Source: Candidatus Poribacteria bacterium (GTDB lineage Bacteria; Poribacteria; WGA-4E; WGA-3G). From it: 64,000 bases of DNA. This document shows, in pieces, positions 1 to 12,570 of the stretch (positions are counted from its first letter, which is position 1; the number at the start of each line of letters is the position of its first letter). The stretch is from the NCBI GenBank assembly GCA_965215265.1, contig OZ244048.1, positions 1,472,001 to 1,536,000 of the forward strand, in the 5' to 3' direction. The position numbers and the translations under genes are program-made. The notes under the pieces are model-generated. The model saw nothing but the letters and a program-made list of their open reading frames with translations. It ran no database searches and had not been told where the DNA came from.

Positions 1-1031
1 AGATGCGCGTCAAGATCGCATCCGACCTCAATTGCACTTGTAGTGAAAAGCAGGTATCCGTCATCGTTTTTTTCACAATCCTTTAGTTTACGGTAGACGT
101 TCTTGCGCCGTAGATTAGAAAGCCGCCCGTGGTAAAGAAAAATGTTGTCTCCACTGTACCGCTCTCTCATGTAGCGATAAACTGGAACAAGATCTTGAAC
201 GGTTTCAATCATGACGATAATTCGCTTATCTGCTTCGTAGCGCTGTGAAACGCGTGCACAGATTTCGTTCTGTACCTTTTCTCCTGGTTCCACAGTAATA
301 TGCTTAATCCGCTTATCAGGATATTGCCGGTTCTGCTTTTTCCGTTGCCAATTTTCCAATTTTAATTGATTATCGCTTGTGGTATAGTCAACGGTATCCA
401 AGAAATTCAATTTTGCTTGGTATGTATCAGGCATTGTCGCTGTCATAACAACCATATCAAGATTTACTTTGTAAAGTGCCTTGATAAGACGTTCAAAGTT
501 AACAAAGGCAACATTATCATAAGAGTGGGCTTCGTCAAAACAAAAGAGATTCCGTCGTTGACTGTGCTGGATGCGAAACGGGTAAATATAAGACTTTCTC
601 GGTTCCCCAAATCCGAAAAAGCGGTACAGAAATTTGTCAAAAGTGGTAATGATGACATCGCCATCATAGAGATGCCTTTTTCCTCTTTCTAACATTTTTC
701 CTTCTCTAAAGACAGTACGCGTTGATTGCGCGCCTGTATCAACGACAAGTGCATAAGAATTGTCTAAAACCGTTGACATTTGCTTAAGGTACTTTTGACA
801 CCGGTCGATCTGGTCATCAACAAGACTCCGAGAAGGAAAAATAAGGAAAAGCCGCCGGCCTGACGTAAGGCTAGGGATAAGCACAGCCTCCGTTTTTCCG
901 CTGCCTGTAGGTGCCTTAAGCAAAAGCGCGGGATTGGAATTTTCGGTAGCAATGTGCGTGAAAAGAGTTTCTTGCATGGGATTTGGATTGTGCTTTGCCA
1001 ATTTTTGGTATGCCGCTAATACGTTTTGCAT
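1..1031 (-). CDS. cas3: Second Cas3' SF2 helicase (no N-terminal HD domain), 3' end off the window edge; absent from ORF track
   Basis: Manual translation from ATG at 1031 (SD GAAAGGAGGTGA): MQNVLAAYQKL...LKAPTGSGKTEA (Walker A)...FPSRSLVDDQ (Ia)...ITTFDKF (Ib)...FDEAHSY (II)...MTATMP (III)...LYHGRL...TTSAIEVGCDLD (V). Frame stays open to position 1. Confidence 0.9.
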   Translation of the reverse strand, partial: MQNVLAAYQKLAKHNPNPMQETLFTHIATENSNPALLLKAPTGSGKTEAVLIPSLTSGRRLFLIFPSRSLVDDQIDRCQKYLKQMSTVLDNSYALVVDTGAQSTRTVFREGKMLERGKRHLYDGDVIITTFDKFLYRFFGFGEPRKSYIYPFRIQHSQRRNLFCFDEAHSYDNVAFVNFERLIKALYKVNLDMVVMTATMPDTYQAKLNFLDTVDYTTSDNQLKLENWQRKKQNRQYPDKRIKHITVEPGEKVQNEICARVSQRYEADKRIIVMIETVQDLVPVYRYMRERYSGDNIFLYHGRLSNLRRKNVYRKLKDCEKNDDGYLLFTTSAIEVGCDLDAH

Positions 1032-1807
1032 AAGATCACCTCCTTTCGCTGACATTCGGTATAGGTATGAGCCTTCACAATAATTTCACGGAGTAGTCTC
1101 TGCCCTTCTGTAGGTTTGTCATTTTTCAGAGCGTTCCGTATTTTATTTTTGTGTTTCTCAGGTACGTTGAATTCATAATACTCAAGTGCTAGGCAGATCT
1201 CTTGGGGCCCAAAAGGATAGGGGCTCACTTCAATTGTCTTATCGTTACGCCGCCGTGAGTGGAAATCCATAAAGACACGCGGTTGTACACCATCTGTAAA
1301 GGCATAAGTTTCAAGTTCAGCCTCGATCTGATCGCACATCTCTAAAATGTAGAGATCTATGGGAAAATTTTCTACTTCAGTCTGAGAAAACTGTTTCAAG
1401 GTGCTGAGCTGCGCTTGTGCCTTGGCAATACCTTCAACCGAAAATTCGTGATGTAACCGGATAAGCTGCTCAACGTACCGATTTACGTCGAAAACTCTGA
1501 ACCGATGTCCTGCAAAAGAGTAGCCAAGTGATTTGATTGCGTCATGCTTCGAGCTGCGATAGGTTACGCGAAACGTTTCCGGCTTCGCGGCATCATGTTT
1601 ACAGGCAGCACGTATCAGGAATTCTCTGGTTATGTGACAGTTTCGGTTAAAGTTTGAATAAAAATCTCGTCGAAAATTTTCCACTAAGCAGACGACGTTT
1701 GCAACGTGGCTCTCTAAAGTGAGAACAGTCACCTTCTTTACATCCGGTCCGCTTTCCGGTTCAAAAAAAACGCGTCCAACATGAACGAAATCTATGTTAT
1801 GAGCCAC
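1016..1807 (-). CDS. Stand-alone Cas3''-type HD nuclease (about 263 aa)
   Basis: Ordered HD-domain ligands ESHV, KHDAAK, FAGHRF, RLHHEF, MCDQIEAE. Likely GTG start at 1807 after GGAGG, 1 nt past the cas5 stop; overlaps the cas3' start. Confidence 0.75.
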   Translation of the reverse strand: MAHNIDFVHVGRVFFEPESGPDVKKVTVLTLESHVANVVCLVENFRRDFYSNFNRNCHITREFLIRAACKHDAAKPETFRVTYRSSKHDAIKSLGYSFAGHRFRVFDVNRYVEQLIRLHHEFSVEGIAKAQAQLSTLKQFSQTEVENFPIDLYILEMCDQIEAELETYAFTDGVQPRVFMDFHSRRRNDKTIEVSPYPFGPQEICLALEYYEFNVPEKHKNKIRNALKNDKPTEGQRLLREIIVKAHTYTECQRKEVILCKTY

Positions 1808-1808
1808 T

Positions 1809-10492: not shown

Positions 10493-10494
10493 GT

Positions 10495-12570
10495 TTATAC
10501 CTCCTGTGCCCAAATATAGGGCTGCGCGTTTAACAAAAGCGCGTCTTTAGAAAAGACAACGCTCATCTCGTTGCCTTCTGAATCAATTAAGGGAAAAATA
10601 CCAAAAAAGGATGGAAGTCGCAAACGCACTCTGAGTTCATTAGCGCGTTCTGGACGAATAAGACACAAGTGCTTTTTCCGTTTCAGTGAACGGTTAATCC
10701 TGTTAATGTCTTGGAAACGGCATTCAATTTGAAAGTCCTGACGCACTTTTACGCGACGATAATCTTCTTTACTAAATTGGCTCAGAATTGGGCGACTGTA
10801 GTGGAGCTGAAGCCGCTCTGGCTCTGAGCGATATGCCAATAACCGTAGATAGATATCAACATATCTATACTGATGAGGTTGAGCCCCATGTGCCGTAACA
10901 GCCTGCATGAAATCCTGTTTGCTCATCCATTCGGTTTCAGCGTTTCTGAGAACCCATAGCAAATTGTAGGTTTTAATGCAGCCATCAGTTTCGTCAAGAA
11001 TACCACACATGAACGGAGACTCACCACGAAAACGCGTAATAGCAGTTTGAATGACTTCAGGTTGTTTTTGCGTAATGGCGTAATACCACTTCACTTTTTC
11101 TGGGATGTCGACTTTAAAGATATTACTATAGGTTTGTGTGAGTTCTTCACGAACGGAATCATAGTTATCGCGCAACCGGGGATGTGCCAAGGTATTAATT
11201 ACATGTGCTGGGTGTAGCCATCCCCACGTTCTTTGGTAGCTCTGAAAATCGTTGACCGGTGAAAAAATGCGTTTTTCCTGCTGTTCATTCTGCATACATG
11301 CGATGAGTGTGGCTTTATCAATCTCCGGTTTTGGGATATCAGAGACTTCTATTCGCTCAGCTACGTACCTCGGGAGCAGAGAGTGTGCGACAAAGTTTTT
11401 AAAGGCAACGGTGTTGCTATCCCGTTCGTACCCGCTGTGTCGTCCGAGGCGTCCGAGGCGTTGAATCCATGAACCGGCATCCAATGCCTCGAAAACGAGA
11501 TAGTTGATTTCGAAATCAACGCCGACATCGACTGTTGAGGTGCCAATAAGCAGGTCACTCTGTTCTCGTGCAAATGTTTTTTCCTCTTGTCTACTCAAGC
11601 CAGTATTTTCACCGACACTCAACGGGAAATCTCCTGCCGTTTTACGTTGTTTCAGAAAATCGACGATCCGTTTTGCGGCTGCTACGGAATTGACAATAAT
11701 TGCACCGCGTGAGCCAGGATTTTCAGCGAACCAATCCACCAATTCTCTATAATGGTTTTGAATCCATGTTTCAGTTTGCCGTCCAACTGCATGGAAGTGG
11801 AGTGTGAAAGGGTTACAAATCTGATTCCAATCCTGCTTGTCAGCAGTATCTTCGAAAGAATACTCGCCCTCAATGATTTGGTAGCGAAGACCTGAACGTT
11901 CCAAGGATTCTAAGAGCAACGGGCTGGGTGTTGCTGAGAGAAAAACGAATTTCTTTCTCTGGTACGTCTCCCGAGTCTGCTCAATGACATATAGTATTGC
12001 GGTCAGCACTGATAGGACTTGTGAGACATCGTAGATATGAAATTCGTCAAAAAGAAAAACATCGTAATAATCAAGGACGGTTTGGAGCAGCTGATCAGGA
12101 TTTTGATGTTCTCCCATATACATGAAATTAGCGATGAGGTTGAAAATATCAGGGTTGGTGAGCACAATTTCGTGTCCTTGTGCTAAAAAATCGATTGCAC
12201 TTGCTTGGCTTCCCAAATCCAACTCCGCTCTGAGTTTGTATAACCGGTCGCTGAAGATACACTCCGGTGTGATGTCACGACCGAACATCTTACAATACTG
12301 TCTTATCTGTTCTAGCTGATCTTGGATTAATTCATTTGTCGGATACATCGCCAAAACGGAGCTTTTGTCGACCAATGCAGGGAGATAGGCTGCGAGACTT
12401 TTTCCATCGCCTGTCATCGCTGTGTTGAAGACAACGTCAATCTCCGGATCTTGAATTGCCTGATATGTCTTGACCTGGTGTTCTCGTAAGGAGAATTCAG
12501 ACGGTATATCCTTAATTGAGACAGATTGACAACGTCTAGAATAGACAGGTGAAATTTTAAGTGAAATCAT
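10495..12570 (-). CDS. cas3: Type I-D Cas3' helicase
   Basis: TAMTGDGKSLAAYL, MYPTNEL, LTNPDIF, DEFH, LSATP, GTSTVDVGVDF, QRLGRLGRH; no HD domain, as expected for I-D. Confidence 0.95.
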   Translation of the reverse strand: MISLKISPVYSRRCQSVSIKDIPSEFSLREHQVKTYQAIQDPEIDVVFNTAMTGDGKSLAAYLPALVDKSSVLAMYPTNELIQDQLEQIRQYCKMFGRDITPECIFSDRLYKLRAELDLGSQASAIDFLAQGHEIVLTNPDIFNLIANFMYMGEHQNPDQLLQTVLDYYDVFLFDEFHIYDVSQVLSVLTAILYVIEQTRETYQRKKFVFLSATPSPLLLESLERSGLRYQIIEGEYSFEDTADKQDWNQICNPFTLHFHAVGRQTETWIQNHYRELVDWFAENPGSRGAIIVNSVAAAKRIVDFLKQRKTAGDFPLSVGENTGLSRQEEKTFAREQSDLLIGTSTVDVGVDFEINYLVFEALDAGSWIQRLGRLGRHSGYERDSNTVAFKNFVAHSLLPRYVAERIEVSDIPKPEIDKATLIACMQNEQQEKRIFSPVNDFQSYQRTWGWLHPAHVINTLAHPRLRDNYDSVREELTQTYSNIFKVDIPEKVKWYYAITQKQPEVIQTAITRFRGESPFMCGILDETDGCIKTYNLLWVLRNAETEWMSKQDFMQAVTAHGAQPHQYRYVDIYLRLLAYRSEPERLQLHYSRPILSQFSKEDYRRVKVRQDFQIECRFQDINRINRSLKRKKHLCLIRPERANELRVRLRLPSFFGIFPLIDSEGNEMSVVFSKDALLLNAQPYIWAQEV

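Follow-up and report, generated by a model that had tools for sequence, protein, structure and literature searches.

A type I-D and a Thermus-type I-B CRISPR effector cassette in tandem on one backbone of a sponge-symbiont Poribacteria chromosome

Can a single CRISPR locus, with one set of adaptation genes and one array, hold two complete type I interference modules, and if it does, is the pair a working system or a passing stage of recombination? The question is raised by a 64,000-nucleotide stretch of DNA (the window) from the chromosome of a sponge-symbiont Candidatus Poribacteria bacterium, G000 (positions G000:C1:1472001-1536000, on a single 4.83-Mb contig), near whose left end two complete but different type I interference modules stand in tandem on the minus strand. 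The first is of type I-D and the second is related to the type I-B systems of Thermus plasmids; an earlier sequence-only reading had proposed that the two form one operon with a common promoter region, Cas6 and pool of CRISPR RNAs (crRNAs). The reading that we prefer, with a probability of roughly 0.6, is that this is a working dual-effector operon and also a young intermediate in the exchange of effector cassettes.

Organization of the tandem locus

The features of the locus that lie in the window are given below, with gene starts refined using ribosome-binding sites and the sequences of relatives, and families assigned from Pfam, NCBIfam equivalogs and PADLOC profiles.

13165-14181, minus strand: WYL-domain regulator at the head of the locus, 338 amino acids (Pfam WYL 1e-11, WCX 5.5e-15; PADLOC CRISPR-associated WYL 4.7e-28)
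12675-12702, minus strand: putative backbone promoter motif GTAAAACGCTAATGTTATGTGGTATAAT, with a TG-extended -10 (one match in 64 kb at ≤3 mismatches, 0 expected)
5780-12670, no strand assigned: I-D cassette (5′ untranslated region, cas3′, cas10d, csc2, csc1), present or absent between near-identical strains
12570-10495, minus strand: cas3′ helicase of type I-D, 691 amino acids (TIGR03158 261 bits, cut-off 69; PADLOC Cas3d 1.7e-153)
10492-7457, minus strand: cas10d large subunit with N-terminal HD, 1011 amino acids (TIGR03174 408 bits, cut-off 60; PADLOC Cas10_Id 2.4e-158)
7470-6454, minus strand: csc2 (Cas7d; Pfam Csc2 4e-114; TIGR03157 271 bits, cut-off 38)
6437-5778, minus strand: csc1 (Cas5d; TIGR03159 195 bits, cut-off 41)
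5768-5793, minus strand: junction of csc1 tail and ribosome-binding site, AAGCGAAACAACATAAGGAGAAGCCC, directly before the cas8b-like ATG (direct-repeat copy A)
5767-3557, minus strand: cas8b-like large subunit, 736 amino acids (PADLOC Cas8b PDLC01527 2.5e-120)
3540-2557, minus strand: cas7 of the second module, 327 amino acids (PADLOC Cas7b PDLC01388 9e-105)
2582-1809, minus strand: cas5 of the second module, 257 amino acids (PADLOC Cas5b PDLC01389 1.3e-79)
1807-1016, minus strand: putative stand-alone HD-type protein (Cas3″), 263 amino acids, GTG start (similar to the N-terminus of Thermus Cas3)
1031 (or 1055) to 1 and past the window edge, minus strand: N-terminal part of a second cas3′ helicase (TIGR01587 cas3_core 115 bits, cut-off 102)

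The gene order on the minus strand is thus WYL, I-D cas3′, cas10d, csc2, csc1, cas8b-like, cas7, cas5, HD protein and second cas3′, and the refined calls and profile assignments leave the order that the sequence-only reading had given unchanged. Its description of nine co-oriented and tightly packed genes also holds, since neighbouring genes are spaced by gaps of 1-16 nt or overlap by 14-26 nt. All nine effector genes are full length.

The first module has what defines type I-D: Cas10d, an HD motif within Cas10d, Csc2, Csc1 and a Cas3′ of the I-D type. The helicase motifs G[DS]GK[ST], DE[FA]H and GR[LA]GR are found in the G000 Cas3′ and in all 20 relatives compared, and Pfam and NCBIfam recognize only helicase domains in this protein, the HD motif being present instead in Cas10d. 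Residues H103 and H137 of Cas10d are invariant in the 21 aligned sequences, with Asp the next residue in every tabulated context. The usual I-D order, in which csc1 is followed by cas6-cas4-cas1-cas2, is not seen in G000, where the cas8b-like gene comes after csc1.

The second module is less familiar. Its large subunit has no sequence match in Pfam, NCBIfam or the PDB, and belongs to a small family, of which 115 representatives were recovered at E≤0.001 from 1.84 billion clustered proteins; the named relatives come from plasmids of Picosynechococcus (2 records) and Thermus thermophilus (15 records, including HB8 pTT27 and two from HB27). The cas8b-like product is 31-34% identical to its large-subunit counterparts in the Thermus pTT27 and Picosynechococcus plasmid loci, with corresponding values of 48-54% for cas7 and 44% for cas5. 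We therefore assign Cas8b, Cas7 and Cas5 to type I-B on the basis of one profile library (PADLOC) together with homology and synteny with these loci. The ESM Atlas offers no more than a lead, in neighbours at the level of features, namely CXXC_CXXC Cas8-like clusters and a Deinococcota cluster. Sequence searches of the PDB with the cas8b-like, Cas7 and HD proteins returned nothing meaningful.

The HD protein has no match among the Pfam, NCBIfam and PADLOC profiles, and aligns to residues 5-224 of the fused T. thermophilus HB8 Cas3 (30% identity, E 2e-19). Residues H34, H71-D72, H101, H119-H120 and D159 are invariant in 22 aligned sequences, a pattern like that of the Cas3 HD motifs. Its AlphaFold model has a predicted local distance difference test score (pLDDT) of 81; Foldseek against the PDB gives no match at E≤0.001, and the HD-domain structures 3irh and 4lrl appear only at E ~4. 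The start was refined to a GTG, as the first 19 codons of the longest open reading frame (ORF) hold stops in 9 of 24 relatives. The second cas3′ extends 855 nt past the left edge of the window and encodes 636 amino acids from the first ATG (1055) or 628 from an ATG preceded by a Shine-Dalgarno sequence (1031); D174, E175 and H177 of its DExH motif are invariant in all 26 sequences.

Both large-subunit genes contain conserved internal starts about 150 codons from their ends, as expected for separately translated Cas11, and the hidden small subunits that the sequence-only reading had suspected in each module are to this extent supported. In cas10d a Shine-Dalgarno sequence and ATG at 7882 predict a Cas11d-like product of 142 amino acids, with GGAGGT-N7-ATG conserved in 21 of 21 sequences, G000 included; in the cas8b-like gene the ATG at 4015, 153 codons from the end, predicts a C-terminal product of 152 amino acids, and AAAGGAG-N7-10-ATG is present in 25 of 25. 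Translation of Cas11 from within the large-subunit gene is described in the available parts of McBride et al. (bioRxiv) and, for cas10d, of PMC10212523. A model of the C-terminal 152 residues of the cas8b-like protein is mostly helical (pLDDT 84) and has no Foldseek match at E≤0.001, so that structure speaks neither for nor against a small subunit. With their intact genes, conserved motifs and internal starts, both modules look functional.

A related strain, represented by the contig X7 described below, lacks 27 nt in frame at window position ~4032 (L125 8032), just upstream of the internal start at 4015, where the G000 cas8b-like gene codes a tandem LEPSS-LEPSS; the linker before the putative small-subunit start therefore varies in length.

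A single backbone serves both modules

The two modules could in principle be neighbours by accident, each with its own promoter, cas6 and array. We examined 20 kb leftward of the window (L001), where the second cas3′ is followed by cas6, a cas4-cas1 fusion, cas2 and an array, each present exactly once. These features, all outside the window, are as follows in L001 coordinates.

18215-19069: cas6 (TIGR01877 67 bits)
16591-18222: cas4-cas1 fusion (NF049935 630 bits, cut-off 560)
16273-16581: cas2
11325-16072: CRISPR array with 64 copies of one 37-nt repeat, ~200 nt after cas2
~19070-19100, about 900 nt left of the window: direct-repeat copy B, directly before the cas6 ATG (26 of 29 nt match copy A, with one extra AAC)

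More than one effector module stands here beside only one cas6, one adaptation unit and one repeat type, which is what defines a composite locus; a separate cas6 and a distinct repeat, which the sequence-only reading had named as grounds for giving up the idea of a shared system, are not seen. The 37-nt repeat is confined to this one array in the 4.8-Mb genome and on the cas strand ends in ATTGAAAC, which we take to be the usual 8-nt crRNA tag of Cas6-processed I-B, I-D and III repeats. A megablast search with the whole array against 50,697 phage records gave no protospacer match.

The putative promoter points the same way. Its only copy in the window sits upstream of the I-D cas3′, and in relatives the same motif is found just upstream of cas8b (L035, L037, L042, L048) or just upstream of the I-D cas3′ (L090, L093, L095, L103, L106); we infer that it acts as the promoter of the backbone. 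A consensus scan of 5700-5900 revealed no promoter-like or terminator-like site, and the absence of a visible signal at the passage from csc1 to the next large subunit, remarked on in the sequence-only reading, is upheld. Across 1-14600 the counts of promoter-like and terminator-like sites equal shuffle expectation (24 versus 22.5 and 12 versus 14.5). The best sigma-70-like match of the region (TTGACT-17-TATAAT with TG, 11/12, 12955-12983, minus strand) is placed between the backbone motif and the WYL gene, ~385 nt upstream of the I-D cas3′ ATG, and X7 is without 126 nt (12768-12893) just downstream of it. An 81-amino-acid ORF at 12691-12936 was dismissed as a gene, being Cys-rich and of low complexity, and Rfam at its gathering threshold gave no match in 1-14600.

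It is true that a further cas6 and a further cas1 are present in the genome, together with two other arrays, as two independent abutting systems would lead one to expect. These lie, however, about 1 Mb away (C1:505-536 kb and 622 kb) and have other repeats, of 30 nt. The first site (G000:C1:505001-535578, of which L129 covers 505001-524600) is itself a composite locus outside the window, in which cas6b and a III-A set (cas10, csm3, csm4, csm5, csx1/csm6) are followed by a I-B Tneap set (cas8b, cas7b, cas5b, cas3b), cas1 and an array with 170 copies of a 30-nt repeat; the second is an orphan array of 27 repeats (C1:622351-624111), also of 30 nt, and neither repeat is related to the 37-nt one. 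The genome as a whole therefore has four effector modules on two arrays, plus the orphan array. At the tandem locus itself cas6, the adaptation unit, the repeat type and the promoter motif are each present once, and independence of the two modules is highly improbable.

A further gene in this area, about 1.5 kb past the far end of the array (L001 4986-9824, minus strand), encodes a 1612-residue fused helicase/methyltransferase/restriction protein (PADLOC type IIG restriction-modification, 1869 bits), so the locus is located in a defence neighbourhood.

The junctions and a scar before cas6

The boundary between the modules is very precise. The csc1 stop codon occupies 5780-5778 and the cas8b-like ATG is at 5767, with 10 nt between them. 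The ATG and first codons of the cas8b-like gene, ATGGTTAATATT, are as in relatives, but they are preceded by the csc1 tail and AAGGAGAAGCCC; canonical cas8b loci have the backbone motif ~35-40 nt upstream of the cas8b ATG, and this native promoter and its ribosome-binding site are absent from the tandem locus.

The sequence before the ATG is the one that is also found, as copy B, before cas6, where it ends a 76-nt spacer that has no counterpart in relatives. The csc1 tail within it codes for S-E-T-T, a variant specific to the G000 csc1, and native csc1-cas6 junctions in 18 relatives read ...ACATAAGGAGACC..ATGCC. The presence of the S-E-T-T tail and ribosome-binding site before cas6 indicates that the cas6 of the G000 lineage formerly lay directly behind this csc1. 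A placement of the second module in the slot normally taken by cas6 agrees with this scar and with the I-D loci of relatives, where csc1 is followed directly by cas6, cas4/1 and cas2 in 18 of 20 cases.

The tandem arrangement is real and polymorphic

Because G000, to judge from its relatives, is a metagenome-derived genome, and because the two locus types have long near-identical flanks and a variant without I-D coexists in public data, a chimeric assembly of I-D and I-B-type loci from different strains with a common backbone has to be considered. An 8-kb stretch over both junctions is matched by sequencing runs of at least six studies, with a share of at least 0.43. We aligned Logan contigs, which are short-read contigs rather than long reads over the full 18 kb, from four runs of four studies to L125 (L125 coordinates are window coordinates plus 4000). 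Contigs from two other studies, X5 (record 4, L125 8297-10118) and X6 (record 13, L125 8307-10015), cross the csc1/cas8b junction with 0 differences, and X5 also crosses the cas3′/cas6 junction with 0 differences; X9 contains parts of both modules at low depth, and none of its listed pieces bridges csc1/cas8b. These contigs show that the tandem form exists as real DNA, and the misassembly at the junction that the sequence-only reading had allowed for is not borne out. Moreover, the exact fusion of csc1 stop, ribosome-binding site and ATG is not expected from a collapse of shared flanks, and we regard a chimera as barely credible.

The fourth data set shows a different structure. A 15-kb X7 contig, which differs from G000 by 105 substitutions over 9.7 kb (~1.1% divergent), runs from the array through cas8b and then skips from L125 9779 to 16671, a stretch of 6891 nt (window 5780-12670) that corresponds exactly to the I-D cassette. 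The skipped part begins 4 nt past the -10 box and ends with the csc1 stop, and 22 unrelated letters are in its place; a search of the genome and the fetched loci at ≤4 mismatches turned up no source for these, barring one 4-mismatch match at C1:843229 that we take to be due to chance. The I-D cassette is thus a presence/absence polymorphism between strains about 1% apart. If the last event was deletion of I-D from a tandem ancestor, this would explain the duplicated csc1 tail and ribosome-binding site in one step; alternatively, a canonical I-B-type locus may have gained I-D by insertion, which is in keeping with how the loci of all relatives are built.

Effector cassettes are exchanged among relatives

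Taking a single genome for each species, we surveyed 176 genomes of the phylum for the co-occurrence of the second module with I-D, as the sequence-only reading had suggested. The cas8b-like gene is present in 27 and csc2 in 69, and the tandem form is found in one species genome. We compared 26 cas8b contexts (L032-L057) from 25 of the 26 other genomes, the short fragments of G111 being left out. All 26 are free of I-D genes; 24 have the full five-gene module, cas6 directly follows cas3′ in 25, and a WYL gene is upstream in 22. The 20 I-D contexts (L088-L107) come from 29 places with full-length csc2 matches (68-81% identity), and 16 have an upstream WYL gene. A metagenome scan with a single protein found no relative, and a scan with an alignment found four loci, none having I-D genes beside cas8b.

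Each module, then, normally occupies the backbone alone, and the backbones of the two kinds are closely similar. Relative to G000, cas6 is 50-65% and cas4/1 66-83% identical, about equally for I-D and I-B-type loci, and the same is true of cas2. The csc1-cas6 and cas3′-cas6 junctions share the same ribosome-binding region. Four pairs of I-D-only and I-B-only loci have identical repeats (L088 and L056; L091 and L037/L042; L103 and L054; L095 and L044), and L051 and L100 have near-identical backbones with opposite modules, separated by a path length of 0.044 on a tree of Cas6 and Cas4/1. This tree was made from 19 I-B-type rows, 13 I-D rows and G000, after four rows with stops in the match and ten with incomplete cas6 or cas4/1 matches were dropped. 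It requires at least 10 changes of module label, compared with a mean of 10.3 when labels are shuffled (264 of 500 shuffles are as low). Taken together, these comparisons show that effector cassettes have often been exchanged on one backbone. We tentatively advance the more general idea that I-D and Cas8-type I-B effectors are interchangeable alleles of one Poribacteria backbone, with the tandem locus an exchange caught in the act.

There are in fact two backbone variants, one with a WYL protein 56-62% identical to that of G000 and a GTAAAAC...TATAAT motif, the other with a WYL protein ~26-35% identical and a GCAGGTTTGTG...TATACT motif; both occur with either effector module. In L104 (G085:C7:79500-96972) and L105 (G082:C82:65500-85400), the two of the 20 I-D contexts where cas6 does not follow csc1, an I-D effector set (cas3′, cas10d, csc2, csc1) has no WYL gene, backbone promoter, cas6, adaptation genes or array within the fetched stretch, and a complete cas8b-type locus lies on the same contig 80-90 kb away; L104 has an unassigned 431-residue ORF after csc1. 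This may be a second way, in trans, of pairing both effectors. In the cas8b-type locus L040 (G097:C3:807200-827100) cas7 and cas4-cas1 are each split by an insert of ~1.3 kb (10721/12063 and 17312/18652), which may be two copies of one mobile element.

How the tandem locus may work

We picture G000 as having a recombinant locus, in which a I-D cassette and a Thermus-type I-B cassette would have come to stand in tandem on a backbone (WYL regulator, one promoter, cas6, cas4-cas1, cas2, one array) that each normally occupies alone. Both intact cassettes are most likely transcribed as one operon from the single backbone promoter; Cas6 would cut the single pre-crRNA, the Cas10d/Csc2/Csc1 and Cas8b/Cas7/Cas5 complexes would load the same crRNAs, and each would recruit its own helicase and nuclease to give redundant DNA interference. 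The tandem state itself is probably no fixed design but an intermediate stage in the exchange of cassettes, both young and polymorphic. A shared promoter, Cas6 and crRNA pool, as the sequence-only reading had it, is supported by the architecture, and we infer co-transcription, dual crRNA loading and activity from the gene arrangement. Since identical repeats and near-identical backbones serve either effector set alone, it is plausible that both modules are compatible with this Cas6 and repeat. As to the benefit of two effectors, the sequence-only reading had offered a broader range of protospacer adjacent motifs (PAMs) or a backup; redundancy is the more natural of these, because one Cas4-Cas1 chooses the spacers, and a wider PAM range is less likely.

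Several observations weigh against a working pair. The tandem is rare among the species surveyed, X7 shows that it is not fixed, and a consensus scan may miss weak internal promoters. Characterised I-D systems use a GTN PAM. According to the available text of PMC12102369, the Thermus I-B system uses TTC, and its Cascade is inactive when assembled by a non-cognate Cas6. A single Cas4-Cas1 might consequently feed only one of the modules, and it is not guaranteed that one Cas6 can serve two Cas5 types.

Most of these points would also suit the main rival reading, a transient by-product of cassette replacement, in which only one module works and the other is silent, unloaded or PAM-incompatible and on its way to being lost, so that no dual-effector function would exist. 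The rarity of the tandem, a near-identical strain with the I-B-type cassette only, the frequency of exchange on the backbone tree, the csc1-tail scar as a trace of an earlier rearrangement, and the importance of Cas6 identity for an active Thermus Cascade in that same text can all be read in this way. On the other hand, the nine genes have their full length and undamaged catalytic motifs, each large-subunit gene retains its internal start for a small subunit, and the tandem form is assembled identically in runs of three studies. Backbones as close as those of L051 and L100, and identical repeats, serve either module elsewhere, making incompatibility with this Cas6 or repeat unlikely. On balance we think it less likely that one of the modules is a mere passenger, and favour a working dual-effector operon that is also evolutionarily young.

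Whatever its fate, the tandem locus is a natural test bed for the features of crRNAs and PAMs that are read by Cas10d-type and Cas8-type Cascades, and natural strain pairs with and without the I-D cassette offer a gauge of the value added by a second effector. The borders of the cassette, which lie 4 nt past the -10 box and at the next gene's ribosome-binding site, provide a concrete recombination route for 'module shuffling' in CRISPR evolution. If both complexes do load the same crRNAs and accept the PAM of one Cas4-Cas1, the locus would be natural proof of crRNA and PAM compatibility between two structurally different Cascades, and, as a natural case of 'two locks, one key', would defend against escape mutants or against anti-CRISPRs specific to one effector.

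Comparison with known systems

Composite CRISPR loci and crRNA sharing are already known, and composite III and I loci are common. In the literature searched, which included PMC10212523 and PMC12669027 and was taken without supplements and subscription papers, we found no tandem operon of I-D and I-B, no two different DNA-targeting type I effectors joined in one gene string behind one promoter, and no description of population-level I-D/I-B cassette swapping on a backbone with identical repeats.

The first module closely follows type I-D of the Synechocystis/Microcystis type, with cas3′, cas10d with its HD, csc2 and csc1 all matching curated equivalogs, an internal Cas11d start, and a WYL gene upstream, whose association with type I-D is described in the available portion of PMC10212523. 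It differs in that a second effector module, rather than cas6, follows csc1, and in that the cassette brings no cas6, no adaptation genes and no array.

The second module has the same order, WYL, cas8, cas7, cas5, cas3, cas6 (with cas4, cas1 and cas2), as the Thermus pTT27 I-B and Picosynechococcus plasmid loci, every gene being 28-54% identical to that of G000 and PADLOC labelling Cas8b, Cas7b and Cas5b. The T. thermophilus system is treated as type I-B (Cas8b, Cas7b, Cas5b, Cas3b, Cas6-1) with an active Cascade-Cas3 in the part of PMC12102369 that is available, the HB27 system studied there being linked to the matched pTT27 locus by gene content and not by accession. In contrast to Thermus, G000 has a putative HD protein and a helicase as separate parts of Cas3, and a fused Cas4-Cas1, and the module stands behind I-D with no promoter of its own. 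In the Poribacteria relatives, the second module with cas6, cas4/1 and cas2 constitutes a complete stand-alone system.

Two known arrangements come closest to the tandem as a whole. In Pyrococcus furiosus the Csa (I-A), Cst (I-G/I-B) and Cmr (III-B) effectors share Cas6, the adaptation unit and crRNAs, as described in the available parts of PMC4436667 and PMC4666368, so that one crRNA pool feeds more than two effector complexes, among them a pair of type I, much as we propose a common pool for G000. The Pyrococcus modules are in separate loci or transcription units, however, whereas in G000 two type I modules lie in one gene string, and one of these is the type III-like I-D. The composite III and I loci, of which the locus at C1:505-536 kb in this same genome is an example, likewise have one cas6 and one array; there an RNA-activated effector is combined with one that targets DNA, while the G000 tandem pairs two DNA-targeting type I effectors.

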